This document shows, one piece after another, positions 1-18,515 of a DNA stretch of 64,000 nucleotides (position 1 is its first letter; each line of letters begins with the position of its first letter). The stretch lies in contig JBDRGP010000029.1 in the NCBI GenBank assembly GCA_043817645.1, positions 58,226 through 122,225 on the forward strand, in the 5' to 3' direction. The position numbers and the translations under genes were made by a program. The stretch comes from Candidatus Woesearchaeota archaeon (GTDB lineage: Archaea > Nanobdellota > Nanobdellia > SCGC-AAA011-G17 > JACPIM01). The notes below the pieces were generated by a model that did not search any database, was not told the DNA's origin, and saw nothing but the letters and a program-made list of their open reading frames with translations.

Positions 1-342
1 AACCTCAAAACCCTTACCTCCAAGATACCTACAAGTCTCTAAAATACAAGGATGTTCAACTTTTGTTGTTATAATATGCCCCTTTCCTTTTGAAAGAGCC
101 AATCCTTTCAAGACAGTATTATTTGACTCAGAACCGCAACTAGTAAAAACAATTTCCTCTGGCTTTGCACCAATAGCCTTAGCAACAATCTTTCTTGAAC
201 TATCTAGAGCCTCTTTTGCCTCTGATCCAAAATCATGAACAGAAGAAGGATTACCATACTTTTCAGTAAGATAAACATCCATTACTTTAGCAACTTCAGG
301 ATCTACCTTAGTTGTTGCTCCATTATCCAAATAAACTTTCAT
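1..342 (-). CDS. iscS: Cysteine desulfurase (IscS/NifS family), N-terminal part; the 3' end runs off the window edge
   Basis: The reverse-strand translation starts MKVYLDNGATTKVDPEVAKVMDVYLTEKYGNPSSVHDFGSEAKEALDSSRKIVAKAIGA...FTSCGSESNN, the classic class-V aminotransferase/NifS N-terminus. Its ATG overlaps the stop of the upstream regulator ORF (ATGA at 339-342). Confidence 0.85.
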   Translation of the reverse strand, partial: MKVYLDNGATTKVDPEVAKVMDVYLTEKYGNPSSVHDFGSEAKEALDSSRKIVAKAIGAKPEEIVFTSCGSESNNTVLKGLALSKGKGHIITTKVEHPCILETCRYLGGKGFEV

Positions 343-728
343 TTCCTATCCTCGCAACAATTAACCAATACCGGCCTACATTGCTCAGTCACATTACAGA
401 ACTGTCTATGAATCCTACATAGCTCTCCTGAATCCTTTACAACCCTCAACAATCTCTGAATTTCTCTCAAAACTGAAAACTTATCATCTATATTTGAAGC
501 AGATTTGGAAATTTCTTCCAAAATGGACTTATTAAACTTTACTTTTGCCCCTCTTTTTTTACTGATATATTGACTCACAGCAGCCCTATCTATCTGCAGT
601 AATTCAGCTATCCTGCTCTGTTTTAACCCACCAGATTTCATATAAACAGCCAAATACCTCCTGATGGTAGGTATTACATAAAATACTTCAATCTCCTGAG
701 GCAATAAAAATCCATTTTTGTTAACCAT
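339..728 (-). CDS. HTH transcriptional regulator (sigma-70 region-4 / DUF134-like helix-turn-helix) with a C-terminal Cys-rich tail; translationally coupled to iscS
   Basis: 129 aa. The HTH segment is GLKQSRIAELLQIDRAAVSQYISKKRG. The C-terminus is CRIHRQFCNVTEQCRPVLVNCC, with 5 Cys. The 4-nt overlap is with the iscS start. Confidence 0.55.
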   Translation of the reverse strand: MVNKNGFLLPQEIEVFYVIPTIRRYLAVYMKSGGLKQSRIAELLQIDRAAVSQYISKKRGAKVKFNKSILEEISKSASNIDDKFSVLREIQRLLRVVKDSGELCRIHRQFCNVTEQCRPVLVNCCEDRK

Positions 729-781
729 AGTTAAAAGTAACGATAGTTAACATTTATAAATATTTCTATCAACTAAAATTC

Positions 782-1795
782 TCAAGTTTCAACTTCAATT
801 AGACCATCTTTAACCTTAAACTTAACATCCAAGAACTTCTTAATAATCTCAATATTGGTTTTAGCATGCTCTGTCATCTCTAAAAACTTAAACTTTCCAC
901 CTTTACCAAAAGCCAAAAAAGGCAATAACTGATCTAACATAAACCCATCCACCGTTGCTTTACCATCTACATACCTTAACAATCCCTCGGCACATTCCCT
1001 ACCAATAACCTCGCTTTGTTTACCTCTCTCGCCTACAACATCATAACCAACCAAACTATCTTCAAAATCAAACTTACACAAAATACCAGAACCAGGACAA
1101 ACAGAATCAACATACTCTACTTTCCGTCTAATAGGAATATCAGAGAACTTTCTTCCAATTAAACCCACAGCAGATTGAGATTGTCTTTCAGCAACATTAG
1201 CTTTTTTTAAATGTGAAGATGCAATAGAAAATAAACCAATGCTATTTAACTCTCTTCTCTCAATCAAATCCAAATATTCTAATTTAGTTTTTTTAATTTT
1301 AGAATCAACAATAGCACCGCCCTTAGGATAAAATCCATTTCTTAAAACCTCTATATTATTTTTTAATCCAATTTTTTCTAATAAAGGTAAAAAAACTTCT
1401 TGTAAGTATAAGATGCTCGGAGCATACAAATTCCAAGTACCACCACCAATTATTCTTACATTTAAATCACTATTCAAACTAGCTAAAAAAAGAGTTTGCA
1501 ATATCAATGCTGTAGAGCCAGCAGTTCTAACCTGAATTTTTAATTTCTTTTTTGTTATCTTGCCAGGGATAAATTTCAATTCTTTGCTATACAACTCGTC
1601 CCCAGAAACCTCAGCATCGCACAATTTTTTAACAGATTTAATAGCCTGTAAATGTTGTTCCCTTAATCCGGGATTCTCTCTTTTTGCTCTGATATTTTTA
1701 ATTGTAAAAGATTGTTGAGTTAAGGCTGAGAGGCCTAAGGATGTCCTAAGTATTTGTCCTCCACCTTCCAAAACGCTTCCATCAATAGTTATCAT
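782..1795 (-). CDS. rtcA: RNA 3'-terminal phosphate cyclase
   Basis: 337 aa. The N-terminus MITIDGSVLEGGGQILRTSLGLSALTQQSFTIKNIRAKRENPGLREQHLQAIK matches the RtcA signature. Confidence 0.9.
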   Translation of the reverse strand: MITIDGSVLEGGGQILRTSLGLSALTQQSFTIKNIRAKRENPGLREQHLQAIKSVKKLCDAEVSGDELYSKELKFIPGKITKKKLKIQVRTAGSTALILQTLFLASLNSDLNVRIIGGGTWNLYAPSILYLQEVFLPLLEKIGLKNNIEVLRNGFYPKGGAIVDSKIKKTKLEYLDLIERRELNSIGLFSIASSHLKKANVAERQSQSAVGLIGRKFSDIPIRRKVEYVDSVCPGSGILCKFDFEDSLVGYDVVGERGKQSEVIGRECAEGLLRYVDGKATVDGFMLDQLLPFLAFGKGGKFKFLEMTEHAKTNIEIIKKFLDVKFKVKDGLIEVET

Positions 1796-2231: not shown

Positions 2232-2921
2232 TCATTTTTTCATATAAAACTTTCTTTTATCTTCGTCAAACCTTTCTATAGCATACCTTAACATTGTTCT
2301 TGGCATTTTTTTATAATATTTTTTCAAAAACCTTTCTTCTTCCTTTTGATCTTTTTTTCCAACCTCTCTTAACATCCACCCAACAGCCTTATGAATTAAA
2401 TCATGCTTATCTTTCAATAAAATCTCAGAAATCTTAAAAGTATCCTCAAATTCTCCATTTCTTATAAAAACAAAAGTTGAAATTACAGATATTCTTTTTT
2501 CCCATAAATCACTAGAATTAGCTAATTTGTAAAGTACCGAACGGTCTTTATCAAGTAAGTAAGGACCTAAAAGCTTAGGCGCAGTTAAATCCACCAGATC
2601 CCAATTATTCACGTACTTTGTATGAGATAAATAAAAGTCAATAATTTTTTTATCAAATGTTTTTTGGTAATTATCAACAAGAATTAAAAGTGCTACTAAT
2701 CTTTCTTCATGAATCCTACTCAAAAGCAATTTTTTTATATCGCTAAATTGAATATCTTTATATTTTTTAGTAATAGCTCTTGAATCTCCAACTGGGATCC
2801 CAAGAAAAATATCCCCTTCTCCATACTGACCTTTTCCTGTTTTAAAAAAATTTGAAAGAATTTTTGCTTTTTCTGGGTTTTTTAATTGTTGGAGTTCTTT
2901 TTTGAGATTTGATAAAGTCAT
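2232..2921 (-). CDS. DNA alkylation repair protein (AlkD-like HEAT-repeat glycosylase family)
   Basis: 229 aa. The N-terminus ELQQLKNPEKAKILSNFFKTGKGQYGEGDIFLGIPV matches the conserved start of the DNA alkylation repair enzyme family. Confidence 0.7.
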   Translation of the reverse strand: MTLSNLKKELQQLKNPEKAKILSNFFKTGKGQYGEGDIFLGIPVGDSRAITKKYKDIQFSDIKKLLLSRIHEERLVALLILVDNYQKTFDKKIIDFYLSHTKYVNNWDLVDLTAPKLLGPYLLDKDRSVLYKLANSSDLWEKRISVISTFVFIRNGEFEDTFKISEILLKDKHDLIHKAVGWMLREVGKKDQKEEERFLKKYYKKMPRTMLRYAIERFDEDKRKFYMKK

Positions 2922-3792: not shown

Positions 3793-3865
3793 ATCAAAAA
3801 TCTGCGAATATTTGTTTATAAACTTTATGAAAACCTTTAAAAATGAATTTATCTTTATTCAGAGA

Positions 3866-3964
3866 AGCAGAGTAGAACAGAATTGCCTTAAAGGTAGTGT
3901 TCAATCAGGAGTGTTCGCTGGGCTCATAACCCAGAGGTCGTTGGTTCAAATCCAACCTCTGCTA
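3866..3964 (+). tRNA. Initiator tRNA-Met (anticodon CAT, 3925-3927) with an apparent ~24-nt insertion in the D-loop (non-canonical intron)
   Basis: Folded by hand. The acceptor is agcagag/ctctgct with an A1:U72 pair. The D-stem is gaac(3875-78)/gttc(3913-16). The anticodon arm is ctggg-CTCATAA-cccag, with the GGG:CCC pairs typical of archaeal initiator tRNA. The T-arm is gttgg-TTCAAAT-ccaac and the discriminator is A. 34 nt lie between the D-stem halves, where 8-11 are expected. Confidence 0.65.
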
Positions 3965-3970
3965 GCGAAT

Positions 3971-4002
3971 CCAGGAGTTTTACTACTCTTGGATTTTTTT
4001 TA
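3971..4002 (+). terminator. Hairpin (ccaggag...ctcttgg) followed by a T9 tract immediately 3' of the tRNA
   Basis: The hairpin has a 7-bp stem with one G:U. A T-run follows, as is typical of archaeal termination signals. Confidence 0.45.
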
Positions 4003-4078
4003 TTTACTTTTTGCCATTCTCTAAATTTTTTAATGTGCTTCGACTGCCTAAATTTAATAATTCTTATTGTGATACTTT

Positions 4079-4962: not shown

Positions 4963-5223
4963 ATGGAAATCAAAAAGAAAGCCTGGCCAGAATTATTCCA
5001 AGCTGTTTTAGAAGGAAAAAAGAAATTTGATCTTAGATTGGCAGATTTTGAATGCGCTCCAGGAGATACACTAATTCTTGAAGAATGGGATCCAGATACT
5101 AAATCCTACACAGGAAGAAAAATAGAAAAGAAAATAACCTATATCCTTAAAACAAAAGACCTAAAATTTTGGCCTAAGGAAGATATAGAAAAACACGGAT
5201 TTCAGGTCATGTCTTTTGAATAA
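4963..5223 (+). CDS. DUF3850 / ASCH-PUA-like small RNA-binding-fold protein
   Basis: 86 aa. WPELFQAVLEGKKKFDLRLADFECAPGDTLILEEWDPDTKSYTGRKIEKKITYIL matches the conserved DUF3850 pattern (WPEYFEAV..GKKTFE.R..D..F.VGD.L.L.EY). Confidence 0.6.
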   Translation: MEIKKKAWPELFQAVLEGKKKFDLRLADFECAPGDTLILEEWDPDTKSYTGRKIEKKITYILKTKDLKFWPKEDIEKHGFQVMSFE

Positions 5224-5370: not shown

Positions 5371-5414
5371 ATAATTTCATAACAGTTATATACTATTTAA
5401 TCCTTTCTTTTCGT

Positions 5415-6263
5415 ATGTCTCAGGACGTAATATTTTACTATGTAAAGGTATTTCCAAAACTAAAGAAATTCCTAAAAAACAGGGAAATAGCCACCATTAT
5501 GAAGCTAAAAGACACTGAAATAGTAAGAAGAGGCTCAAATCACCCTCCTTTATACATAAAAGACCTAAAAAAAATCAACAAAAAGTTCCAGGAACTAAGA
5601 AAAGGCAACATCCACCTAAAAGACATAGAATCCCAATTGTCCAATATCCAAATAAAAATTTGGCAATATTTCGTTCCTAGAAAACTCATAGAGCTACATT
5701 ACGCAGTCAATCAAGAACACCCAAATAAACCCTTAGAAAGAGTATATTTTGACATAGACAGAAAAGACATTCCAGCAGAAAAAGCACAATTAGTAGCCCT
5801 AAAATTAATAGAAACCATAAAAAAAGATAAAACCTTCAGATTAGAGTATAAAATATTTCCTATGTGGACAGGAAACTCCTTCCATATATACCTTTTATTA
5901 AAAAAGAAAATTCCTCATTCTTTTTATGAAAAAAACTTCCATGTAGATATAAACCACCAAAAAGACTCCTTTACTGGAAGATGGGCTCTTAAAATAAACA
6001 AAGAACTAAAAAACATTAAAGTAGTAGCAGGCCATCAGAAAAAACAAGGCTATATCAACATAGATCCTTCACAATCACCATCAGGTAAAATTTCTCGTTC
6101 TCCCCTTTCCTTATACATAAAAAATTATTCTTCAATAAGGGGTATTGCCCTCCCCTTAACCATAGAAGACTTAAAAAATAAAAACCTAATAAAAGAATTA
6201 AGGGGTTACACTATAGAAAAAGTTATAAAAAATCTCAATAAACTAGCTAAAAAATTACCATGA
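5415..6263 (+). CDS. Archaeo-eukaryotic primase (AEP) catalytic-subunit-like protein (PriS-like)
   Basis: 282 aa. It has a motif I DxD (RVYFDIDRKD), a motif II SGxxxH-like (MWTGNSFHIY) about 40 residues later, and a motif III hD (YINIDPS). The spacing is consistent with PriS. Confidence 0.5.
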   Translation: MSQDVIFYYVKVFPKLKKFLKNREIATIMKLKDTEIVRRGSNHPPLYIKDLKKINKKFQELRKGNIHLKDIESQLSNIQIKIWQYFVPRKLIELHYAVNQEHPNKPLERVYFDIDRKDIPAEKAQLVALKLIETIKKDKTFRLEYKIFPMWTGNSFHIYLLLKKKIPHSFYEKNFHVDINHQKDSFTGRWALKINKELKNIKVVAGHQKKQGYINIDPSQSPSGKISRSPLSLYIKNYSSIRGIALPLTIEDLKNKNLIKELRGYTIEKVIKNLNKLAKKLP

Positions 6264-6652
6264 CCACCTTAACAATAAAACACATCAATGTAACTAATTT
6301 CAAACCAAAAGAGATTAGAGCACAATTAGAGATAGGATTTGATAAGGGAGACAAACCCCAAACCATAAATAAAGAATATCTCTTAAAAAATCCAGAAGAA
6401 CTTCTAACACAAATATTTTTAGACATAAAATCAAAAGACAGAGTAATAATCGATGATCCAACTTTAGACCCGGTAGAAAAATTAGAGATCTATTCTCCGA
6501 TTATTATAAAAGATGAAGAGCAAGTAGAAGCAAAAATCTATCAGTTCATAAAACAATTATGTGAAAAAGCAGCGCATATAAAAAACACAAGAGACGCTAA
6601 AGTACATATGAAATTATTTGATGAGTTTAAGACTGCTTCTTTGCAGATATAA
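6260..6652 (+). CDS. Hypothetical protein translationally coupled to the AEP primase (possible small primase partner)
   Basis: 130 aa, overlapping the primase by ATGA. No recognisable family. Confidence 0.4.
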   Translation: MTTLTIKHINVTNFKPKEIRAQLEIGFDKGDKPQTINKEYLLKNPEELLTQIFLDIKSKDRVIIDDPTLDPVEKLEIYSPIIIKDEEQVEAKIYQFIKQLCEKAAHIKNTRDAKVHMKLFDEFKTASLQI

Positions 6653-6691: not shown

Positions 6692-7660
6692 ATGATATGC
6701 CTATCTTTAGAAGGGACCGCCCATACGGCAGGGTGTGCAATAGTAACAAGTAAAGGAAATATCCTATCAGATATTAGGGATATGTACACTAAAGAAACAG
6801 GAGGAATAATCCCATCAGAAGCAGCACAGCATCATAAAAAAGTATTCCCCGGATTAATTAAAAAAGCAATAAAAGAAGCAAATATTAAAAAAATAGACTT
6901 AGTGGCTTATTCAAAATCACCAGGACTTCCACCATCACTAAAAGAAACCCTAAATGCAGCAAAAGATATAGCAAAAGATCTAAATGCACCATTAATCGGT
7001 GTAAATCATTGTATCTCTCACCTTTCATCTGCGCATTTCTTCACAAAAACAAAAAATCCCATATACGTTTTTGTTTCCGGCGCCAATACACAAATAATTT
7101 CTTTAGAGGGTGAAAGATTTAGGCTACTAGGAGAATGTATTGACATGGGTTTAGGAAACGCCTTAGATAAGTTTGGTAGATCTATAAACCTAGGTTTTCC
7201 AGCAGGCCTAAAAATAGAAGAATTGGCAAAAAAAGGAAAATACATAGAACTACCTTATACAATAAAAGGAATGGACTTATCTTTCTCAGGCATAATCACA
7301 TCAGCAATTGACAAATTTAAAAAAGGAGCTAAAAAAGAAGATCTCTGTTTTTCAATACAAGAAACATTATTTGCAATGCTAACAGAAGTTACAGAAAGAG
7401 CATTAGCGCATACAAGAAAAAATGAAGCGGTTATAATCGGAGGAGTGGCGGCAAATAAAAGACTTTCAGAAATGCTTTCAATAATGTGTAGAGAAAGAAA
7501 TGCTAAGTTTTATGCAGTTCCTTTAAAATATTCTGGAGATAATGCTGCGATGATCGCTATACAAGGAATCTTAGAATACAAAGCAGGAAACCGAACAAAA
7601 CATCCGGACATAGAACCATATCAAAGAATAGATGAAATAAAAGTTAGTTGGAAATACTAA
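6692..7660 (+). CDS. kae1: tRNA N6-adenosine threonylcarbamoyltransferase Kae1 (TsaD family), not fused to Bud32
   Basis: 322 aa. It starts MICLSLEGTAHTAGCAIV and includes NAPLIGVNHCISH; the fold is ASKHA, Kae1-type. Confidence 0.9.
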   Translation: MICLSLEGTAHTAGCAIVTSKGNILSDIRDMYTKETGGIIPSEAAQHHKKVFPGLIKKAIKEANIKKIDLVAYSKSPGLPPSLKETLNAAKDIAKDLNAPLIGVNHCISHLSSAHFFTKTKNPIYVFVSGANTQIISLEGERFRLLGECIDMGLGNALDKFGRSINLGFPAGLKIEELAKKGKYIELPYTIKGMDLSFSGIITSAIDKFKKGAKKEDLCFSIQETLFAMLTEVTERALAHTRKNEAVIIGGVAANKRLSEMLSIMCRERNAKFYAVPLKYSGDNAAMIAIQGILEYKAGNRTKHPDIEPYQRIDEIKVSWKY

Positions 7661-8268
7661 TAACTAGGACCAGTTTGTCCTTGATAAAAAGTTGTACTTC
7701 TTTCTACATCTCCAGGAGATGATTTCACAACCAGAATTTTATCAGAATAGACTCTATTATTTACGCAGTTATTAGTTGGTACACTGCTAGGACAAGCTGT
7801 TATCACATATAAAGCTGGCCTTCTGTCGTAAGGTACCCTAAAAGATGCTTTTCTGGGTGTATAACAATTAGAACCAGAATCACTCTCTCCAGGATTTAAC
7901 TCAAAACCAATTTTACATATATCTCCTATACTATCAACTTTAAGACCACTAATCGCATTCCTAAAGTCTACCTTATCATCCCATATACCATCCTTGTTAG
8001 GATAAATTTCAAAATGTACAACCTGGCCTTGCCTCACAACATATCTGCCGTTCTCATTCACAATATCAGGAGAATCAGGAGAAACAATTTCTATTCGAGT
8101 AGTTTCCTCTTCAGATCTTTCAGCAAAAAATCTCCCACTAGAATAACCACTACCGCTATAACCATAAGCAGTAGCACCAGTATACTGACTAATAAAAGAA
8201 AACACAACTAGCCCAACAACTAATACTAATAAAATTCCCACACCCCTTTTCATAGCATCATAGTCCAT
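7657..8268 (-). CDS. Secreted or membrane-anchored hypothetical protein
   Basis: 203 aa with an N-terminal TM/signal segment and a Gly/Ser/Tyr-rich linker. No recognisable family. Confidence 0.45.
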   Translation of the reverse strand: MDYDAMKRGVGILLVLVVGLVVFSFISQYTGATAYGYSGSGYSSGRFFAERSEEETTRIEIVSPDSPDIVNENGRYVVRQGQVVHFEIYPNKDGIWDDKVDFRNAISGLKVDSIGDICKIGFELNPGESDSGSNCYTPRKASFRVPYDRRPALYVITACPSSVPTNNCVNNRVYSDKILVVKSSPGDVERSTTFYQGQTGPSY

Positions 8269-8293
8269 TTTTTCTTATATAAACCTTATTATT

Positions 8294-8722
8294 TTAACAT
8301 TCTCCTGGTTTATATTTGTTTACATTTTGACAAGCCACACAACTATTGCTATAGGTCTTCCCATCATCACCACAAACCGGGTCATATTCCTGAGTACAAA
8401 ATTCCCCAACTTCCTCAGGACAATCTATATCTTCCACAATTAACCCAGTACACCTCCAATTAATACTAACCTCTCCAGTTTCAGTTTTCACAACACAAGC
8501 AGGATTACACCCCTGTTTTTCAATATCTAAATCTATCCACCAGGTTTTTGTACCTTCATTACAAAGAGCCTTCCCCAAATTTCCTTGATTACATTCACTA
8601 TCCAAAGCAATTTTTCTAGCATCGCTCAAACTCATACCAGCACATAGCTCCGTTCCTAACTCACACCCAACTATCAAAAAAAGAACTCCAACTATTAGTA
8701 AACTAATTAATATTTTTTTCAT
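8294..8722 (-). CDS. Lipoprotein with a C-terminal Kazal-type protease-inhibitor domain
   Basis: It has a signal peptide plus LIVGC lipobox. The C-terminus CTQEYDPVCGDDGKTYSNSCVACQ matches the Kazal signature (C-x-PVCG-x-DGKTY-x-N-x-C-x-x-C). Confidence 0.6.
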   Translation of the reverse strand: MKKILISLLIVGVLFLIVGCELGTELCAGMSLSDARKIALDSECNQGNLGKALCNEGTKTWWIDLDIEKQGCNPACVVKTETGEVSINWRCTGLIVEDIDCPEEVGEFCTQEYDPVCGDDGKTYSNSCVACQNVNKYKPGEC

Positions 8723-9015
8723 TTTCCAATTGTAGACCCTTTCTCACACCTATTATCTATACACACACAACCAAAATCCTCGCATTGTTCCACACAATCA
8801 AATTCCTCACAGATATCCGTCTCAAGTATATCATAATATTCTCCATTCATACACCGACAAATATCCGGTTGAGCTAAACAATCGTCTTTAGTCTCACAGA
8901 ATTCATAACCCGCTATCATTTCAGGAGGAGGCCTAAAAATATGGTCTAACCATAAACGCCCTCCAAAAACAACTAAAACAACTACAACAACCAAAACAAA
9001 AAATACTTTCTTCAT
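8719..9015 (-). CDS. Small secreted Cys-rich protein (14 Cys in 98 aa)
   Basis: It has an N-terminal signal/TM, then CETKDDCLAQPDICRCMNGEYYDILETDICEEFDCVEQCEDFGCVCIDNRC. It has 4-nt overlaps with both neighbouring genes. Confidence 0.5.
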   Translation of the reverse strand: MKKVFFVLVVVVVLVVFGGRLWLDHIFRPPPEMIAGYEFCETKDDCLAQPDICRCMNGEYYDILETDICEEFDCVEQCEDFGCVCIDNRCEKGSTIGK

Positions 9016-9989
9016 CCCCGCCTCACACTAAACTTAGGATTCTCCAAATTTTCTCCAGCATCTAAAAAGAACGTAAATCCTCTAAGACTTCCTTCAGCAC
9101 TTGTATTTTTTTTATCTAACTTCACACCGATTTTCTCAGCAACACCAGATAAATATTCTTTCAATTCTTCCTTACTTGCAAACTTGATATTTGTCTCAAG
9201 TTTTTTTCCTTGAAATTCCACTTCAATAGGTTTGTTATATTCATCACAAATTATACCAGTTATTTGATGGTCATGCAAAAAAGGTTCTATCCTACCCAAC
9301 CCGAACACATCATTCACTAAATAATATTTAACATTAGTATCGTGTCCTTCCTGTAAATTAAATTTCTTTCCATACTTCTGAATAAGCTCCCATCCTTTTT
9401 CCATATTCTTAATTTTTCTTTTCTTCTTAATCTTATTCAAAACTTGTAAATCAATACCATCTAAGTTAGGCTCATCAACTATATATTTATCAGCAACATT
9501 CACTGATGCAAGAACTCTTTTAGTTATTTTATCCTTAATTAAATCCTTATGACCAATGAGTGTTTCATCTCCTTCCAATAACCTTCTCCTTCTTTTTTTA
9601 AACCTATCCGGCTTTCTAGGTTTCTTAAATCTATCTGAAACATTAACTACTTTTTCAACATACTGCGGAACATCCTTATATTCATGAATACCCACCTCGC
9701 CAATAGGTTTTGGAACAGGCTCTACAGAAACCCCAACAGGAATCTTAAACAATTTTCGTTTTATATTGTCCTTTAAGTTTGTCCTAGCACTTAAATTCTG
9801 CCTCAAACGCTCAAGAGACAAAGGACCATATTTTTTCTTTACAAAAGTATAAGCGCAGCCCCTCATAAAAGTTTCTAAAACAAAAACATTTTTCACAACT
9901 TCTGGATTTTCAATTTTACTTAGAATATTTTGCAAATCTTTCTTCTGCTCTTCCCACTCTTCATCATACAAAAAAACAGTCTCATTCAT
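9012..9989 (-). CDS. Hypothetical 325-aa protein (basic KR-rich centre), member of the coupled operon
   Basis: Long ORF with no recognisable family. It overlaps the downstream gene by 4 nt and the upstream gene by 1 nt. Confidence 0.5.
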   Translation of the reverse strand: MNETVFLYDEEWEEQKKDLQNILSKIENPEVVKNVFVLETFMRGCAYTFVKKKYGPLSLERLRQNLSARTNLKDNIKRKLFKIPVGVSVEPVPKPIGEVGIHEYKDVPQYVEKVVNVSDRFKKPRKPDRFKKRRRRLLEGDETLIGHKDLIKDKITKRVLASVNVADKYIVDEPNLDGIDLQVLNKIKKKRKIKNMEKGWELIQKYGKKFNLQEGHDTNVKYYLVNDVFGLGRIEPFLHDHQITGIICDEYNKPIEVEFQGKKLETNIKFASKEELKEYLSGVAEKIGVKLDKKNTSAEGSLRGFTFFLDAGENLENPKFSVRRG

Positions 9990-10333
9990 TAAAACATACT
10001 CCCAAAATCTTCTTTCTCATTTGTATTCAAAGGTATGTTCTCTTTACTTCTCACAAACCTCTCTAAAAGTAACAAACCATGTGCAATCTTCTTATTTTGT
10101 TCCAAAAGATCGGTTAATTTTCTAGCTAAAGGTTCTTTGATCTCGCCTTTTTCAATATGTTCTGCAGCTTTTTGAAAAATTTCTACCAAACCATCAACTT
10201 TTTTTGTCAAAATATTCATAGAAATTAACAAATCTGCAGTTTTTTTCTGCAATTCTATATTATTTTTTACTAAATGATCTATAATATCTTGTTTAGTAAT
10301 ACGTGAAGAAGATTTTCTTACCAAAAATTTCAC
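9989..10333 (-). CDS. Hypothetical helical protein, first gene of the coupled operon
   Basis: 114 aa with predicted coiled-coil/helical character. Confidence 0.45.
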   Translation of the reverse strand: MKFLVRKSSSRITKQDIIDHLVKNNIELQKKTADLLISMNILTKKVDGLVEIFQKAAEHIEKGEIKEPLARKLTDLLEQNKKIAHGLLLLERFVRSKENIPLNTNEKEDFGSMF

Positions 10334-10477
10334 CTCTTAATACAAAATTTTATAATATACATACAAAAAACTACTATAAAAAGCTTTTTATTGCATATTT
10401 AGCACAAAAATCCACTAAAAAAACCAAAAATTGCAAAAATCACAACTTTTTTAAACACTTAATCCTCAGTTTTACCT

Positions 10478-10645
10478 ATGGCAGATAATAAAATACAAAT
10501 GCCCCAATCTGGTGGGGGGATAGTAAGGTATTTTGATGATTTTAAGAGTAAAATAGAATTTAGCCCCTGGGTTATCATCGGGGTAATAATATTTATTATT
10601 ATTTTAGAGCTACTTTTACACAAAATTAACCTTTTAGGTTTTTAA
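10478..10645 (+). CDS. Preprotein translocase subunit Sec61-beta (archaeal SecG), not in the ORF track
   Basis: The translation MADNKIQMPQSGGGIVRYFDDFKSKIEFSPWVIIGVIIFIIILELLLHKINLLGF (55 aa) has the conserved GxxRYF(D/E)(D/E) motif and a C-terminal TM helix. Confidence 0.65.
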   Translation: MADNKIQMPQSGGGIVRYFDDFKSKIEFSPWVIIGVIIFIIILELLLHKINLLGF

Positions 10646-10691
10646 ATATCTCAGAAGTTTTATATACTCAGAAGATTCTGATATTTATAGC

Positions 10692-11021
10692 ATGATTCCT
10701 AATATTAATCCCAAACAAATGCAGCAGATGATGAAGAAGCTAGGTATGAAACAAGAGGAAATTGAGGCATCAGAAGTAATAGTAAAATGCATAGATAAAC
10801 AAATCCGTGTTGTAAACCCTCATGTAACTAAAGTCCATATGGCAGGTCAAGAAAGTTTGCAGATCACAGGAGAGTTTGTAGAAGAAGACCTAGAAAGCTT
10901 CTCAGAAGATGACCTTAAAACAATCATAGACCAAACAGGTTGCACTGAAGAAGAAGCAAAAAAGGAATTAGAAAAAACAGGAGATCTCGCTGAGGCGATA
11001 TTGAAACTAAAAAAAGAATAG
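10692..11021 (+). CDS. nac: Nascent polypeptide-associated complex protein alpha (NAC domain plus C-terminal UBA)
   Basis: N-terminal NPKQMQQMMKKLGMKQEEI and the NAC domain are present. The C-terminus DQTGCTEEEAKKELEKTGDLAEAIL is UBA-like. Confidence 0.85.
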   Translation: MIPNINPKQMQQMMKKLGMKQEEIEASEVIVKCIDKQIRVVNPHVTKVHMAGQESLQITGEFVEEDLESFSEDDLKTIIDQTGCTEEEAKKELEKTGDLAEAILKLKKE

Positions 11022-11040
11022 ACCATATCTAATTTTTTAA

Positions 11041-11505
11041 ATGGAGACATATCACAATTCAATGAAAGACGCTAGTATGAGATTTAGGAATGCAGACCAC
11101 ATGGCTTATGTTACCTATCCCTTAATAAACGACCCTAAACTTATAGTAGTAATCACTGAGAATCTCTATCACGCCTTACTAAATGCAATAAATGCCTTAT
11201 TAGAATATGAGCATTACCATAAAAGAATAGAGTTTATACCAGAAAGTCTAAATGAAAAAATAAAAACTTTTAGAGACCAAATCTCAAAAACATACGGATT
11301 TCCAAGAGAAATAAGCGTAATCTTCGAAGACCTTCACAAAATAATTGAATTCAAAGAGAAAAGTCCGATTGAGTTTATCAGAAAAAGCAATTACATAATC
11401 TGCGATAACGCATACAGCACAAAAATGATCAATTTTCAAAAAATAAAAGGTCAGGTTATTATAATAAAACCATTCATACAAAAAGTTCAAAATATTTTAA
11501 ATTAA
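11041..11505 (+). CDS. Hypothetical protein, paralog A (shared ADHxxYVT N-terminal motif)
   Basis: 154 aa. RFRNADHMAYVTYPLINDPKLIVVITENLYHALLNAINALLEY aligns with paralog B. Confidence 0.5.
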   Translation: METYHNSMKDASMRFRNADHMAYVTYPLINDPKLIVVITENLYHALLNAINALLEYEHYHKRIEFIPESLNEKIKTFRDQISKTYGFPREISVIFEDLHKIIEFKEKSPIEFIRKSNYIICDNAYSTKMINFQKIKGQVIIIKPFIQKVQNILN

Positions 11506-11507
11506 AA

Positions 11508-11936
11508 ATGGATTTTGGAGATTATGAGGACAGTGCGGAACAGGAATTAAAAAGAGCAGACCATCTGCTTTATGTTACTTTGAAGTACACCAGAAATGTT
11601 GATGTAATCAAAAATATAATTAAAAGATTAATCAACGCGTATGATTTCACAGTACTTGAAGCATTAAATTACTTAAAAGTCAAAAAAATTCCTGATGTTC
11701 CTAGAATGAGAATGAAACTTTTAGCAGAAAAACTGCCAAAATTAGGAAAGGAAGCAAAGTTCTACTTAGTTTTAAAAGAAATAGACGCTGCACCATTCAA
11801 AAGAACAGAAGAATTCAGAAAAAACGTAACTCTACTTACTAAAGTGATGAATGTGAATATTGAAAAAGTAAAAGCTTATTTTGAAAGAACTATGCTTTTT
11901 GTAAAGACCATTGAAGAGATGGTTAAGAAAAAATGA
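11508..11936 (+). CDS. Hypothetical protein, paralog B of the upstream gene
   Basis: 142 aa. LKRADHLLYVTLKYTRNVDVIKNIIKRLINAYDFTVLEALNY aligns with paralog A. The gene is separated from the neighbouring genes by 2-4 nt. Confidence 0.5.
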   Translation: MDFGDYEDSAEQELKRADHLLYVTLKYTRNVDVIKNIIKRLINAYDFTVLEALNYLKVKKIPDVPRMRMKLLAEKLPKLGKEAKFYLVLKEIDAAPFKRTEEFRKNVTLLTKVMNVNIEKVKAYFERTMLFVKTIEEMVKKK

Positions 11937-12466
11937 CTAATTTCAAAGAAGTAGCAATGGCAGTTGGTATTGCAGTACTTTCTGCTTTATTTATTATTTT
12001 ATTAGTTGATGCTTTTTATGAGTCTCCCAAATACCTGGATTTTTGTGAAGAAAGATTTGAAAGGCCAGTAAGGCTTGTTTCTCCAGAAGAATGCGATCTC
12101 ACACAAACTGAAGAAGAAATTCAATGCCTTAATGATGATGGAATGCCAAGATACGACTTTGACGATAAAGGCTGCCAGGTATTTTCTTCATGCGATCTTT
12201 GTAGTAAGGAATATAGAGCTGTTAGCGAAAAATATAATAAAAATATCTTCTTGATTATGGCCCCCTTAGGAATATTATTAATCCTATTCGGAGTTCTGTA
12301 CAAAGTAGCCTTTTTAGGCAGCGGTTTTATGTTTGGCGGTATTATCGTACTAGCCTACGGCACTATAAGGTTTTTTGCAGATATGAACAAGTATGTAAGA
12401 GTTATAGTCATTTTTATTGAATTAATTCTCTTATTATTGATAGGTATTAAAAAGGTGAAAAAGTAA
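11933..12466 (+). CDS. Membrane protein with a Cys-rich extracytoplasmic segment
   Basis: 177 aa with an N-terminal TM, a loop carrying 7 Cys (CEERFERP...CDLTQTEEEIQCLNDDG...CQVFSSCDLC), then 2-3 TM helices. Confidence 0.5.
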   Translation: MTNFKEVAMAVGIAVLSALFIILLVDAFYESPKYLDFCEERFERPVRLVSPEECDLTQTEEEIQCLNDDGMPRYDFDDKGCQVFSSCDLCSKEYRAVSEKYNKNIFLIMAPLGILLILFGVLYKVAFLGSGFMFGGIIVLAYGTIRFFADMNKYVRVIVIFIELILLLLIGIKKVKK

Positions 12467-12593
12467 ATTTTCTAAAAAGGCTCTATTTCTAGACACTATT
12501 TATTATTTAGCAGTGGTTAAAAACAAAAAGATTTAAATACTAGTGAATAGATAGTAATAGTATCAAAATATCATAATTATGAGGTATTAAAAA

Positions 12594-12926
12594 ATGGAAA
12601 ATAAATATACACCACTGACTTTTATTAAAAATGTTAGAAAAATGGGTTTACCTATGGCTTTTGCGGAAGATTTAAGAGCGACTGCTAGGAGTGAATATGC
12701 AATTGAGAGAAAAACTGAGAGTTTAGCTTCTAAAGTAGGGTTCTCCGAAGAAAATGCAAAGGGGTTAGGAAGCCTTGCTGCCACAGGACATGCTTTAGCG
12801 ACACTCCCTGCCTTAGTTGCAGGTCTTGCAGTTGTTGTTCCATGTGCTTTAGTTTCTAATGTTTATAAAATATCAAGGATGACAAACCGAGCTATGAAAA
12901 ATCCTTCAGCACAACCATCTGTATAA
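12594..12926 (+). CDS. Hypothetical protein, compositionally GC-richer than its surroundings
   Basis: 110 aa, Ala/Leu-rich C-terminus. Local GC is visibly higher. Confidence 0.3.
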   Translation: MENKYTPLTFIKNVRKMGLPMAFAEDLRATARSEYAIERKTESLASKVGFSEENAKGLGSLAATGHALATLPALVAGLAVVVPCALVSNVYKISRMTNRAMKNPSAQPSV

Positions 12927-12992
12927 GGATAATTATAAGGCAAGATTTTTCTCTCTTTCTTATTTTTTTATATTGTTTATATCCAAAAGACC

Positions 12993-13010
12993 TTACAGCT
13001 CACAAAAAAC
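12993..13010. repeat. 18-bp direct repeat TTACAGCTCACAAAAAAC, left copy (right copy at 15218-15235)
   Basis: The 18-mer is identical at both sites. The left copy is part of an 8-bp-stem hairpin (acagctca...tgagctgt). Confidence 0.6.
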
Positions 13011-13085
13011 TGAGCTGTAAACTTAGCGTCATCTGTTCTTATTAGATTTCGACAGATTTTTAAACTTCGGGTTCCTAATAATTTT

Positions 13086-13244
13086 ATGAAAGTTATGAAA
13101 GTGGTTGATAAAAAAGTGGGAAATACGACTTATTTCAAATATAGGATCAATCTACCGAAAGAGGCAGTTGAGAAACTAAATCTCCTCGATAAAAATCTAA
13201 AAGTGAAAGTTGAGAAAGGCAAGATTATAATAGAGAAGGAGTAG
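13086..13244 (+). CDS. AbrB/SpoVT (swapped-hairpin) family small DNA-binding protein, not in the ORF track
   Basis: The translation is MKVMKVVDKKVGNTTYFKYRINLPKEAVEKLNLLDKNLKVKVEKGKIIIEKE (52 aa). This resembles AbrB/MazE-type looped-hinge-helix domains. Confidence 0.45.
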   Translation: MKVMKVVDKKVGNTTYFKYRINLPKEAVEKLNLLDKNLKVKVEKGKIIIEKE

Positions 13245-13277
13245 CAATTCGGGTACCGATAAGTTTATATAGTTCGG

Positions 13278-14156
13278 GTGCCTAATTATAGCATGAAAGA
13301 TGCTATAAAATGTAAACATTGTTCAAGTTCGAACTTTTGCAAGAAAGGATTTAGAAAGACAGATTATCGAGGGAAAATTCAAAAATATTATTGTAAAAAC
13401 TGTAAGAGATTCTTTACAAATGATGAGGGGTTTTATAGAATGAGATTTAATCCTAAAACGATAACCATGTCTGTTGATATGTATTTATCAAATCTATCAT
13501 CAAGAAAGATGAGAAACCAATTAACAAGGCACTTCTCGATAAAAGCCAGTCACATGACTATACTAGACTGGGTTAGAAGATATAGCTTGAAAGTTCATAA
13601 GTTTGTTGAGAACTTAGGTTACAATCTTGGAAATCATTTTTATGCAGATGAAACGGAGATTAATAGATTAGGACACAGAGATAATTTCTGGGCTTGTGTT
13701 GATTGGGACACAAGAATGATAACAGGAATACATTACTCTGTTGCTACAAATATAAAAGAAGCAACAGTTTTCATACAGAAATCAGTTAGCAAAGGAAAAC
13801 CAAAATACATTCAAACAGATTCGGCTCAGTTTTACCCGAAAGCGTTCAAGAAATTATTTTATTCAAATAAAATTGGTGGCTTGGTAGTAGAGCATAAAAT
13901 ACAAAATGTTAGAAAAACTAAGATACATAACTATAAGATAGAAACCGTTTTCATGAAAATAAAAGATAGAGTCCATGATTTTAGGGGACTAAAGGCCTTA
14001 TGGTCTGCTCCAATAATCATGACTGGTTTAACAATACAGCATAATTTCATAGAACCTCATTGTAATAAACAAGAGTTTCCTTGTAACCTTGCTGGAGTTG
14101 ATTTAGGTTTAAAAGAAAACAGATGGTTGGATTTAATAAGGATGAGTTCACGATGA
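13278..14156 (+). CDS. IS6-family transposase (archaeal type with N-terminal zinc finger)
   Basis: 292 aa. The N-terminal CKHCSSSNFC...CKNCKRF is a Zn finger. The DDE region includes ADETEI, and length and organisation are typical of archaeal IS6. Confidence 0.7.
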   Translation: MPNYSMKDAIKCKHCSSSNFCKKGFRKTDYRGKIQKYYCKNCKRFFTNDEGFYRMRFNPKTITMSVDMYLSNLSSRKMRNQLTRHFSIKASHMTILDWVRRYSLKVHKFVENLGYNLGNHFYADETEINRLGHRDNFWACVDWDTRMITGIHYSVATNIKEATVFIQKSVSKGKPKYIQTDSAQFYPKAFKKLFYSNKIGGLVVEHKIQNVRKTKIHNYKIETVFMKIKDRVHDFRGLKALWSAPIIMTGLTIQHNFIEPHCNKQEFPCNLAGVDLGLKENRWLDLIRMSSR

Positions 14157-14170
14157 TAAACAGTTATTCA

Positions 14171-15103
14171 TTAAACTTTTCGCCACACATCCCTGTATAA
14201 TTTAGTGGGAGTTCCTTTGCCCTCCCAATCTCTGAATTGTTTCATCCACGCCTGGGATACGAATAGATCATCTAGAAATCCTATTGTCTGTTTAGGGCTC
14301 TTTACAAATTTACCTGCCAAAACTGCCCATGCCTTTGGATTAACCATAGATGTCCTTTTTCCATCATTAAGCCACGTCTCAGAAGTTATATGATAGTCTT
14401 CGGTTCCATCTTCTCTACTTTCAAGCTCAAAGTAACCTCTTGCACACTCCCCAAGTTGATTCGTAGTAGGATACCACCCTCCAAAATCTCTAGCTATTTG
14501 AGCGCAATGATAATCCAAGGTCCCTCTTTTAAAATTGCTTGGCCCCTTCACAATCTCCTTTGGATCAAAAGAGAATCCATCATTAAAGTGGACTATCGTG
14601 GTTGCAAATTTTCCTTTTGGCTTGAGAATCATGTGAACTAATTTAAACATTTCTTGATATATTTGATCTTGCTTACCTTCTACAGCATCTTGAACTTGTA
14701 CAAAGTGTTCAGCAGATCCATTAGCAATAACTCCATCAAAAGAATTAGCCCAAGAATCCGGCATATTTCTGTAATTCATTAACCTAACATCCAAACCATT
14801 CTTAACACACCTTCTAGCTTGTTTTTCTGATACGGTGATACCAACTGCAATGGTCCCCCGGTTCTCTGCGGTTTTTAAAACTCTTCCATATCCACATCCA
14901 ATATCCAGAATTCTAGCTCCGCTACCACAACCTATCTGATCAAGTAACCAATTAGCTTGGTTTTCTTGAGCTTTCTGGTATGATTGCTCAGGATCTCCGT
15001 TGTAAACCCCATCCGTAAAATCTGAAATCCCGCAAGAGGCAAATGCATCTAAGAAATCATAGCAACTCATAACTGCCTGAGAGGTATTTTCTATATCTTC
15101 CAT
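14171..15103 (-). CDS. SAM-dependent methyltransferase of the cyclopropane-fatty-acyl-phospholipid synthase / mycolic-acid cyclopropane synthase family
   Basis: 310 aa. The SAM motif ARILDIGCGYGRV is followed by TIAVGITVSEKQ and later SFDGVIANGSAEHF. The arrangement is collinear with CmaA/Cfa enzymes. Confidence 0.65.
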   Translation of the reverse strand: MEDIENTSQAVMSCYDFLDAFASCGISDFTDGVYNGDPEQSYQKAQENQANWLLDQIGCGSGARILDIGCGYGRVLKTAENRGTIAVGITVSEKQARRCVKNGLDVRLMNYRNMPDSWANSFDGVIANGSAEHFVQVQDAVEGKQDQIYQEMFKLVHMILKPKGKFATTIVHFNDGFSFDPKEIVKGPSNFKRGTLDYHCAQIARDFGGWYPTTNQLGECARGYFELESREDGTEDYHITSETWLNDGKRTSMVNPKAWAVLAGKFVKSPKQTIGFLDDLFVSQAWMKQFRDWEGKGTPTKLYRDVWRKV

Positions 15104-15217
15104 CTTAAAGATTGAATTTTATAAATACTTATAAACATTTATCTGATGGAATGATATAAAATTTTAACTAAGATATATCATCTAAAGATCATCTTACCAG
15201 TCTAGATGACGTTTACT

Positions 15218-15235
15218 TTACAGCTCACAAAAAAC
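15218..15235. repeat. 18-bp direct repeat TTACAGCTCACAAAAAAC, right copy
   Basis: It is identical to 12993-13010. An adjacent 7-bp inverted repeat tcatcta/tagatga lies at 15178-15209. Confidence 0.6.
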
Positions 15236-15283
15236 ATATATTTAAATACCCAAATTCCCATATTCTTAGTACAATGAAACGAG

Positions 15284-16471
15284 TTGATTGTTTTCATAAA
15301 TTCGTATTCTAGAGATTTTAATAGTTATAACTTTATTAAAAATCCCAAAAATAGTTTCCCCAAAAGTGGTCTAACCGTCAGAACGAAAACATTTAAATAT
15401 GCCAAAGTCTTTTATGAGTTTATGGAAAAAAGAGTGGTATTCCCAAAAGGGAAACAAAGGGAGTTTTTAGTCTCTTCAAGAAAAGAACTAAAACTAACCT
15501 GGCCGGAATTTGCTGAAAAAGTCGATACAAAAAGAAAAACTCTAGAAAAGGCCTATAGATATGAATATTGTTCGATGCCATATGGGGTTTTTTCTAAAAT
15601 AGTTAATGAAAGAAACATCAATAAAAAGAGACTTATTAGAGATTATAATATCAAAATAGTAAAAGGAAGTAGATATGGTGCAATTGGAAGGAAGGTGTTA
15701 GGAGAAAAAAGAGCGAAATTAGGCAATATCAACCTTTTATTTGAAAATTCTATACATCCATTTAACACTAGCGTTATAAAATTAAGCAAATATGATGAAA
15801 TTAAGAGAATAAAATTTCCAAATAAATTAACTCCAGAATTAGCTGAAGAAATCGGCATGCATATAGGAGACGGTTTTTTATCCAAAAGAAGGAACGAATA
15901 TCGTTTAAAGGGGAATAAAAATAACGAAAAAGATTACTACAAATACTTCATCAAAAAGCTTTACAAGACTTTGTTTAATTTAGATATTAATCTAAAAGAA
16001 TATGAATCGACATATGGATTTGAAATAAGCTCAAAAGGTCTCTGGACATTTAAAAATAAAATTTTGGGTATTCCATCAGGGAAAAAAGATGATATAGATT
16101 TGCCCGCAATTATAAAAGTGAATGACAAAGATATCCTAACTTCATTTATCCGAGGAGTTTTTGACACAGATGGTTGTGTTAACTTCAAAAGTGGATACGG
16201 TCTAAAGGGATATTACCCAAGAATAGAGATAACAATGCTCTCAAAAGATTTAATAGGGAGCATATCGGAGATATTATATGCATTGGGATTAAAACCATAT
16301 AAGCATCAAGATAAACTAGGATATTGGCATATTACTTTAAATGGCTATGAAAGATTTGAAAGATATAATAAATTAATAGGATGGCATAATCCCAAACACT
16401 TAAGAAAGATAAAAAAATGGAAAAAACAATATCCAAAATTAGGAAAGGATGTAATGGTAGGGGTAGTGTAG
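15284..16471 (+). CDS. Free-standing LAGLIDADG homing endonuclease (two LAGLIDADG motifs) with a ~180-aa N-terminal extension
   Basis: The motifs are IGMHIGDGFL and IRGVFDTDGCV. The last ~5 codons and the stop run into the 5' end of the tRNA-His gene. Confidence 0.7.
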   Translation: MIVFINSYSRDFNSYNFIKNPKNSFPKSGLTVRTKTFKYAKVFYEFMEKRVVFPKGKQREFLVSSRKELKLTWPEFAEKVDTKRKTLEKAYRYEYCSMPYGVFSKIVNERNINKKRLIRDYNIKIVKGSRYGAIGRKVLGEKRAKLGNINLLFENSIHPFNTSVIKLSKYDEIKRIKFPNKLTPELAEEIGMHIGDGFLSKRRNEYRLKGNKNNEKDYYKYFIKKLYKTLFNLDINLKEYESTYGFEISSKGLWTFKNKILGIPSGKKDDIDLPAIIKVNDKDILTSFIRGVFDTDGCVNFKSGYGLKGYYPRIEITMLSKDLIGSISEILYALGLKPYKHQDKLGYWHITLNGYERFERYNKLIGWHNPKHLRKIKKWKKQYPKLGKDVMVGVV

Positions 16472-16546
16472 CCTGGTTAGTTTTTACCCAGAAAACACGC
16501 AAGTCTGTGGAGCTTGAGATCGCGGGTTCAAGTCCCGCCCCTTACC
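16456..16546 (+). tRNA. tRNA-His (anticodon GTG, 16507-16509) with encoded G-1 and an apparent ~14-nt insertion in the D-loop
   Basis: Folded by hand. G-1 pairs with C73. The acceptor is gtagggg/cccttac, and the D-stem is gtgt(16466-69)/acac(16495-98). The anticodon arm is caagt-CTGTGGA-gcttg, and the T-arm is gcggg-TTCAAGT-cccgc. 25 nt lie between the D-stem halves, and the insert can form a gtttt/aaaac hairpin. Confidence 0.6.
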
Positions 16547-16568
16547 CGTTTTCAAAAAAGAGGTCAAA

Positions 16569-17825: not shown

Positions 17826-18151
17826 ACTGGAATTTCCACCATACTTTCTTTCAACCCTTCTTCTACTTCTTGTTTTAAACAAATATTATATAACTCTATT
17901 AATTTTTTTACTGCAGGATTCTCAGTATTTAATCTATATAGCTTAGCTCTTCCAATTGCTCTGTCATAGTCCAAAAAACCTCTTTTAATCATTTCGTCCC
18001 ATATTCTAATAACCGTAACCTTAGACACATTACTATTTCTTATAACGTCTGATTGGTGTACAGGAAGACCTCTACAAGTTATCAAGTACTTTACCACTCT
18101 AGCCATACTTGAATTACCCATAGTTTTAACAAAAATTGAAGTTTCCATCAT
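17822..18151 (-). CDS. Winged-helix transcriptional regulator (small, MarR/TrmB-like wHTH)
   Basis: 109 aa. ARVVKYLITCRGLPVHQSDVIRNSNVSKVTVIRIWDEMIKRGFL is a typical wHTH. Confidence 0.5.
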   Translation of the reverse strand: MMETSIFVKTMGNSSMARVVKYLITCRGLPVHQSDVIRNSNVSKVTVIRIWDEMIKRGFLDYDRAIGRAKLYRLNTENPAVKKLIELYNICLKQEVEEGLKESMVEIPV

Positions 18152-18243
18152 AATTTTTCAATGCATACCCAGTATATAAATGTTTCGTTATTATACCACA
18201 TGGTATAGAATAAGTATTTAAATAAACTAATAATATTAATTTT

Positions 18244-18510
18244 ATGAAAGACCTAATTAAAAAAGAGGTACTAAGATCTCTGATATTATCAAGAAGGTGG
18301 GGCGCTAAACATACAGAAATCAAAAACCTAGAAAAAGGAATCTCCACTTATCTTCTCGATACCAAATCAGGCAAGAAAGCTTTTCAAAAAGCCATTAAAG
18401 AATTAATAAAGGATAATTTGTTATTAACTAAAAAATCTACTGGAGAGATTCATGCCTCTCTAAATCCAAGAAAAAAACAGGAAATTATGAACCTTGTAGA
18501 ATCATCATAA
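18244..18510 (+). CDS. Hypothetical small protein (possible wHTH)
   Basis: 88 aa, basic. Weak HTH-like pattern. Confidence 0.35.
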   Translation: MKDLIKKEVLRSLILSRRWGAKHTEIKNLEKGISTYLLDTKSGKKAFQKAIKELIKDNLLLTKKSTGEIHASLNPRKKQEIMNLVESS

Positions 18511-18515
18511 AATAT

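Follow-up and report, generated by a model that had tools for sequence, protein, structure and literature searches.

We have analysed a stretch of 64,000 nucleotides (nt) from contig JBDRGP010000029.1 of a Candidatus Woesearchaeota archaeon (hereafter the window), with particular regard to 2 adjoining genes that specify, respectively, a 282-amino-acid (aa) protein with the motifs of the archaeo-eukaryotic primase (AEP) superfamily and a 130-aa partner protein. Both open reading frames (ORFs) were recovered on the + strand where an earlier note on this DNA, made from the sequence alone, had placed them (Table 1), and they overlap by 4 nt, as that note had also reported: in the junction TTA CCA TGA ACC, the ATG of the partner shares the nucleotides ATGA with the stop codon of the AEP gene. 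The database entry for an identical 282-aa protein reads hypothetical protein, from a Candidatus Woesearchaeota metagenome-assembled genome (ABIB47_04725). The AEP ORF cannot be extended upstream and its nearest homologs begin at the same residue, and for these 2 reasons we regard its short N-terminus as genuine. What is new here is a divergent, archaea-wide family of LigD-type primase-polymerases, which in the clade of the window protein is without the pocket-bearing N-terminus and has a novel, small, coupled partner.

The 282-aa protein belongs with the LigD polymerase domains

We aligned the window protein with 81 homologs, which are 43-76% identical to it, and observed that D113, D115, H157 and D217 are invariant. 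The DxD, SGxxH and hD motifs named in the earlier note are thus real, and the protein also passes the Pfam threshold for a family of the AEP superfamily. Further invariant positions in this alignment are R39, R62, W83, Y85, Y96, N99, E101, G153, F156 and Y171 and, beyond D217 in motif III, S219, P222, G224, K225 and R228; a conserved SGK..R.P.SL segment follows directly after motif III. LigD_Prim-Pol (PF21686) was the sole significant Pfam family (E 7.7e-7, 29.4 bits, the cutoff being 27.4), matching residues 3-277 of the protein to positions 3-250 of the 254 in the profile, and DNA_primase_S gave no match even at E<=1. Judged by sequence, the narrow margin above the cutoff indicates that the protein is an outlying subfamily. 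NCBIfam returned just a sub-threshold ligD_pol match. Across the family, LigD_Prim-Pol matched 55 of the 81 members (best E 2.3e-12) and DNA_primase_S matched 1, weakly.

An AlphaFold2 (AF2) model, built with the family alignment as input, reached a pLDDT of 96.2 and a pTM of 0.92, and its predicted strands E107-116 (with D113 and D115), E156-166 and E213-217 carry the catalytic residues. When this model was compared with the Protein Data Bank (PDB) by Foldseek, the top match was the polymerase domain (PolDom) of Mycobacterium tuberculosis (Mtu) LigD (E 1.8e-9, TM 0.62), followed by Prim-PolC and by Methanocella paludicola's polymerase of non-homologous end joining (NHEJ), with PriS chains ranking lower (TM 0.25-0.44). 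Searches of the PDB by sequence only, whether with the single protein or with a hidden Markov model (HMM) of the family profile, found nothing, and it is therefore through Pfam, hhalign and fold comparison that kinship with the PolDoms becomes visible. By hhalign, the family profile aligned with the sequences of 4 solved PolDoms taken from the PDB at 96.3% probability (E 1.9e-9, 242 aligned columns). In this alignment D113/D115 pair with Mtu D137/D139, H157 with Mtu H178 (within SGSKGLH) and D217 with Mtu D227; beyond motif III, IDPSQSPSGKISRSPLSL pairs with VDWSQNSGSKTTIAPYSL, the Mtu counterpart being given as 'SQNSGSKTTIAPYSLR'.

The predicted AEP fold, which the earlier note had left to structure prediction, emerged alike from the AF2 model, Foldseek, Pfam and hhalign, and the model shows an intact DxD/SxH/hD set, in which D113, D115 and D217 would hold the metals and H157 the nucleotide. 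These comparisons also show that the 282-aa protein is closer to PolDom than to PriS, although within the PolDom branch it is a distant outlier. That note had read the protein as a strongly reduced PriS, a proposal that found no support, as the profiles favour LigD_Prim-Pol over DNA_primase_S and the 4 PolDoms align as described. Its figure of ~60 residues fewer than PriS holds numerically (PriS chains in the PDB have 327-346 aa) but is no sign of reduction, 282 aa being a normal size for a LigD-type polymerase (PolDom domains have 283-301 aa). A minimal-primase label is in this case a tempting mis-annotation, which the LigD-type assignment corrects. By structure and by sequence we assign the protein to the LigD_Prim-Pol family, and do not claim for it the functional class of AP-NHEJ polymerase.

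The 130-aa partner

The partner is a real gene, with 8 close homologs; when 1.84 billion representatives were searched with its profile, 86 clusters emerged, all consisting of stand-alone proteins of ~125-135 aa with end-to-end matches. Its invariant residues include K57, S58, D65, D66, P71, E73, Y78, S79, P80 and C101. The suggestion that it might be a minimal helper resembling PriX or PriL was not borne out. C101 is the single invariant Cys, and the protein therefore has no 4Fe-4S cluster; its AF2 model, of moderate quality (pLDDT 77), consists of three N-terminal strands and several helices, a beta-meander plus helices, and is not all-helical. Searches for Pfam, PDB or fold matches found none, and no similarity to PriL or PriX was detected. 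Residues 57-80, the most conserved stretch of the protein, have a pLDDT < 50 and are predicted to be disordered when the partner is alone, which is as might be expected of a binding motif.

In 12 non-redundant loci of the ~80 compared, the window included, the AEP gene is directly followed by a partner homolog. The 2 genes overlap by 4 nt in 11 of these and are separated by an 18-nt gap in the other. Across the 12 loci, AEP identity to the window copy extends from 42% to 74%; the loci form 2 monophyletic Woese-/Nanoarchaeal groups and one singleton, and their outer flanks vary. A widened partner profile of 89 sequences added no loci to the 12. Small ORFs found 3' of AEP in other loci were considered as divergent partner homologs and rejected (hhalign probability < 1%), and one recurrent group of them proved to be an HExxH metallopeptidase. 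Also rejected was the idea that the partner compensates for the missing N-terminus of the enzyme, since AEPs with a long N-terminus are likewise coupled to it (L011, L029, L040, L046 and L078).

Distant members of the partner family occur in loci with no adjoining AEP (L084, L086, L087 and L088), and in L084 the partner-family member is 4-nt-coupled instead to an unrelated ORF with coiled-coil-like character (L084:3-476 with L084:473-862). As these distant relatives stand apart from AEP, the partner family must have a wider role and, taken as a whole, does not consist of obligate AEP subunits. The pairing of AEP and partner is real but clade-restricted, and the chances are slightly better than even that the partner has an accessory or adaptor role specific to its lineage.

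Distribution and gene neighbourhoods of the AEP family

A scan of species-representative genomes gave 151 AEP loci, the best 80 of which were used to compare neighbourhoods; for this we called the ORFs ourselves and applied HMMs together with a Pfam scan run in batch. At least 215 members of the family, of 240-316 aa, can be detected, every one of them stand-alone. It extends through the DPANN archaea (Woese-, Pace-, Nano-, Micr-, Aenigmat-, Iain- and Parvarchaeota) and also occurs in Methanobacterium/Methanobacteriota, Methanocellales, Bathyarchaeia and Hydrothermarchaeota. It is, in short, a divergent and archaea-wide family that is almost everywhere annotated 'hypothetical protein'. A neighbour-joining tree of the AEPs roughly tracks taxonomy, and the types of neighbouring gene are clade-specific. 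Canonical PolDom was absent from every locus examined.

In 11 loci of the Methanobacteria type, an ATP-dependent DNA ligase of ~587 aa with three domains lies immediately 3' of AEP, and a second ligase lies 4-7 kb beyond the first. The locus from Methanobacterium sp. MBAC-LM (L003; CP187261, region 10001-18807) has, in order, AEP, a 587-aa ligase, three ATP-cone ORFs, DUF72, a uracil-DNA glycosylase (UDG), Fpg/Nei and a second ligase of 559 aa. By analogy this would be a cluster of base-excision-repair type with 2 ligases, in parallel with the LigC/Prim-PolC/FPG link described in mycobacteria (PMC5663958). A stand-alone LigD-type 3'-phosphoesterase (PE) with the HxHxDxR motif was found in 8 loci and abuts AEP in 4 of them. 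An Aenigmatarchaeal locus (L045) has an operon of PE followed by AEP at 77-1442 (+) and, ~5 kb away, an operon of a 318-aa ligase and a 251-aa Ku at 6780-8488 (-), with Ku matched at E ~1e-45. With Ku, a small LigC/LigD-type ligase, PE and AEP within 8.5 kb, this locus looks like a complete DPANN NHEJ set that uses the divergent polymerase.

One closed Pacearchaeote genome shows translational coupling between the AEP gene and a gene for a metallophosphoesterase. Also, 14 Pace-/Woesearchaeal loci have an HExxH metallopeptidase (PF18894 'PhageMetallopep', HELLHIPxxFGGGF, ~125-160 aa) not more than 2.8 kb 3' of AEP, co-directional with it and often directly adjoining (examples in Table 1). One might speculate that this link hints at repair of DNA-protein crosslinks. 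The downstream genes of L034/L056 and L082/L063, which have the size of a PE or a ligase, were set aside, as they encode CBS, RadC and secreted proteins and a tRNA synthetase.

Surroundings of the 2 genes in the window

The coordinates of the 2 genes, of the AEP motifs and of other features are given in Table 1. The window has a GC content of ~31-36%, as in a low-GC archaeal contig, and the genome one of ~31%, a composition to be kept in mind for the TTATATA sequence 5' of the AEP gene, which is possibly the archaeal TATA box of a leaderless AEP-partner transcript. Housekeeping genes surround AEP: the Kae1 gene begins 39 nt 3' of the partner, ribosomal protein S11 and tRNA-Met are also nearby, and in one Pacearchaeote the neighbours are S12/S7/EF-2. 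The tRNA-Met gene stands between ribosomal protein S11 and a nucleotidyltransferase-like ORF. The gene directly 5' of AEP, on the same strand, encodes a DUF3850/ASCH-domain protein, an arrangement present also on a duplicate short contig (L001).

An AlkD-like DNA alkylation repair enzyme is encoded ~2.5 kb 5' of AEP, with RtcA (RNA 3'-terminal phosphate cyclase) 5' of it; both genes are on the strand opposite to AEP, and no link of either to AEP was established. Downstream of Kae1 are three successive small Cys-rich ORFs with N-termini resembling signal peptides, the 142-aa member of which ends in a Kazal-like 'CGDDGKTYSNSCVAC' motif; these are probably secreted or surface proteins. A LAGLIDADG_3 homing-endonuclease ORF lies just 5' of the histidyl-tRNA synthetase gene.

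Table 1. Positions of the AEP and partner genes, the AEP motifs and other features (window positions unless a locus is named)
Feature	Positions	Strand	Remarks
AEP gene	5415..6263	+	282-aa stand-alone primase-polymerase, LigD-PolDom/NHEJ-Pol type (divergent archaeal family)
Partner gene	6260..6652	+	130 aa, translationally coupled to AEP gene; from ORF call and ATGA overlap
AEP motif I, RVYFDIDRKD	5739..5768	+	residues 109-118; D113/D115 predicted metal-binding aspartates
AEP motif II, TGNSFHIY	5868..5891	+	residues 152-159; H157 predicted nucleotide-binding histidine
AEP motif III, YINIDPS	6051..6071	+	residues 213-219; D217 predicted third catalytic aspartate
TTATATA box	5386..5392	+	centre ~26 nt before AEP ATG; read from sequence
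RtcA	782-1795	-
AlkD-like enzyme	2232-2921	-	PF08713, E 4e-65
ORF	3812-4024		spurious read-through of tRNA-Met gene
tRNA-Met (CAT)	3893-3964	+
DUF3850/ASCH-domain protein	4963-5223	+	86 aa
Three Cys-rich ORFs	7657-9015	-	203, 142 and 98 aa
ORF	9012-9989	-	325 aa, no Pfam match (E<=0.001)
IS240-family DDE transposase	13278-14156	+
LAGLIDADG_3 ORF	15284-16471	+	395 aa
ORF	35782-37374	+	530 aa, no Pfam match (E<=0.001)
ORF	41020-43314	+	764 aa, no Pfam match (E<=0.001)
DDE_Tnp_1 transposase	58501-60066	-
PhageMetallopep genes, other loci	L002:11733-12116; L017:3157-3522; L023:10856-11248; L039:10843-11232; L072:10849-11238		examples from the 14 loci

Proposed function and alternatives

We consider it probable that the 282-aa protein is a LigD-type polymerase of the divergent archaeal family described above, that it fills gaps or processes ends in repair independently of Ku, and that a lineage-specific accessory protein accompanies it. 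To go by its characterised relatives and the gene linkages, such an enzyme would carry out short, template-directed synthesis, filling gaps or extending 3' ends on damaged chromosomal DNA; by the same analogy, ribonucleoside triphosphates (rNTPs) are its probable substrates, with Mn2+ or Mg2+. The product would be a nick, to be sealed by an ATP-dependent ligase, and the pathway would be one of Ku-independent excision or end repair, most like the mycobacterial Prim-PolC/LigC module (PMC5663958). Recognition of the substrate probably differs from that by LigD PolDom, because the 5'-phosphate pocket is missing and no Loop-1 hairpin is predicted. In the Woese-/Nanoarchaeal clade, the partner would be co-translated with the enzyme and act as an accessory or adaptor.

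Several observations weigh against this proposal. Identity to the solved PolDoms is just 14-17%, and the family profile HMM finds no PDB sequence. The 5'-phosphate pocket specific to AP-NHEJ enzymes is lacking, as the protein begins at a position corresponding to Mtu residue 27, and the region corresponding to Loop 1 is predicted to have a helix-loop-helix form, the AF2 model as read by DSSP showing only helices between residues 39 and 91. Ku is linked to AEP in just 1 of the ~80 loci, and all 3 of the 3 distant partner relatives lack an AEP neighbour. The ORFs scanned in the 64-kb window included no ligase, PE, Ku or metallopeptidase, the negative for Ku being weak evidence, although the probes did work on L045 as positive control. 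Because the window has none of these genes, the repair role is argued from relatives, and for the family as a whole a repair activity would likewise be deduced from the characterised enzymes.

The same data can be read in other ways, the closest of which concerns the partner. The enzyme could be a LigD-type polymerase and the 130-aa ORF a functionally unrelated gene that is merely co-transcribed with it and belongs, for example, with Kae1 downstream or to some other process. We hold this to be unlikely, though with a real chance of being right: the distant partner relatives sit beside unrelated genes in 3 of 3 cases (in one also through a 4-nt overlap), most AEP family members have no partner, and Kae1 closely follows the partner in the window, as TsaD does in some relatives (4 co-directional neighbours). 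Yet the partner comes directly after AEP in 12 of the 12 loci that have it, though their outer genes differ, and the pairing, which is found in 2 separate clades, is kept where AEP identity falls as low as 42%. At the other extreme, AEP and partner together might form a repair primase-polymerase of 2 subunits, independent of Ku and so far unrecognised, in DPANN archaea, and the family might be a distinct, ancient archaeal third branch of AEP-proper beside PriS and LigD-PolDom. What the canonical N-terminus and Loop 1 do, be it for DNA ends, for the 5'-phosphate or in recruiting ligase, would then be supplied in trans by the partner, whose segment 57-80 would dock onto the enzyme. We regard this as rather improbable; if true, it would give genome-reduced archaea a minimal route for repair of breaks or gaps.

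Other alternatives would change what the enzyme itself does. It might act on RNA and not DNA, in repair or tailing with phosphoesterase and ligase. Characterised PolDoms strongly prefer rNTPs (PMC5663958), PE is a ribonuclease/3'-phosphatase (PMC4797286), the ligases that adjoin AEP also match the RNA_ligase model weakly (8 members), and RtcA and Kae1 are in the neighbourhood of the window genes. However, breaks or gaps in DNA are the substrates of every characterised member of this branch, the ligases linked to AEP show the three-domain architecture of ATP-dependent DNA ligases, Ku, UDG and Fpg point to DNA, and RtcA lies at a distance of 3.6 kb on the opposite strand, so that we think a role on RNA very unlikely. 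Still less likely, in our judgement, is the proposal that a 282-aa minimal PriS and a 130-aa minimal regulatory subunit of PriL/PriX type form a strongly reduced replicative primase. Neither PriS nor PriL was found among the window ORFs scanned. Canonical PriS/PriL are present in Methanobacterium, where the AEP family co-occurs. In Cluster-2 DPANN, all of them, Woesearchaeota included, a fused PriS-PriL primase has been reported (PMC7414124), and it is regarded as their replicative primase (PMC10250227). From the fused primase in DPANN and PriS/PriL in Methanobacterium, it follows that the AEP family is an additional AEP and not the replicative one, and in the Woesearchaeal lineage one would expect the fused PriS-PriL to act as the replicative primase. 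Mobile elements encode many stand-alone AEPs, and the window contains 2 DDE transposases and the LAGLIDADG ORF, so that we also had to weigh whether this is the Prim-Pol of a plasmid or virus that has integrated, or of a defence island, with a function in replication of the element or in anti-viral defence. We give this reading next to no chance: PHROGs and PADLOC gave no match for the AEP, matches for the partner were marginal at best (Cas6b, E 0.001, 17 bits), the neighbours are housekeeping genes with no helicase fused or adjacent, the transposases are > 7 kb from AEP, and the AEP tree follows archaeal taxonomy.

Repair of double-strand breaks and gaps in archaea, and notably in the genome-reduced DPANN, is little understood, and canonical Ku/LigD NHEJ is considered rare in them. 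The proposed repair polymerase bears on this in several respects. A divergent primase-polymerase of LigD type is shown to be widespread in archaea, and its links are clade-specific, with ligase, phosphoesterase, Ku, metallophosphoesterase, HExxH metallopeptidase or a novel 130-aa protein as the neighbour. If the enzymes are active, many archaea would have a Ku-independent repair module resembling that of Prim-PolC, and loss of the pocket in the clade of the window protein would be a natural experiment on substrate recognition.

Comparison with NHEJ polymerases, PriS and Prim-PolC

The features that separate AP-NHEJ polymerases from replicative primases have been listed by Brissett et al. 2013 (PMC3898472) and Bartlett et al. 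2015 (PMC4797286). The closest known systems to the 282-aa protein are the LigD PolDoms and AP-NHEJ polymerases (Mtu, 2iru; Pae LigD-Pol, 2fao; Methanocella paludicola NHEJ Pol, 5dmu), from which it differs in several respects. The segment that carries the 5'-phosphate pocket of the Mtu PolDom (N13/K16/K26) is absent, residue 3 of the window protein pairing with Mtu S27. Most other members of the family are longer at the N-terminus by 5-20 residues, in which a 'K..L.PFG' pattern resembles the 'DKVLYP..G' of PolDom; on its sequence, this extension of the longer members may be a remnant of the pocket, in a region that hhalign leaves unaligned. Loop 1 of PolDom, a surface beta-hairpin for end synapsis, has its apex (H83-R84-S85) paired with L61-R62-K63 of the window protein, in which R62 is invariant. 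The residues that splay the template in PolDom (F63/F64) and its strand-displacement residue R53 are not clearly conserved: F63/F64 fall near E35-I36 (I36/V37), where the family consensus has a single Phe, and R53 pairs with M29 beside a gap, with a near-invariant family Lys one residue off; both of these pairings are of low alignment confidence. Loop 2 (Mtu 213-224, with K217 and R220) aligns without gaps to residues 203-214, which have conserved G206-H207, K209/K210 and a GGHEK stretch. The association with Ku, ligase and PE that marks AP-NHEJ systems is not seen in the window.

PriS (1v33, 1zt2 and human PRIM1) is clearly farther from the 282-aa protein than PolDom is: the latter has neither the Zn-binding nor the PriL-interacting modules, no PriL or PriX partner, and a gene context that is not replicative.

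The mycobacterial Prim-PolC (5op0, 6sa0) is a LigC-associated, Ku-independent gap filler in base excision repair. Prim-PolC keeps the 5'-phosphate pocket, unlike the window protein, and the latter has no room for the C-terminal Loop 3 of Prim-PolC (G313-P333), as it ends ~6 residues past the PolDom core alignment. The operonic LigC-type ligase of Prim-PolC has no counterpart in the window; within the family, an operonic ligase is found only in the Methanobacteria clade. As a likeness of role, and with no claim of membership, an analogy between the archaeal enzymes and the Prim-PolC/LigC complex appears plausible.
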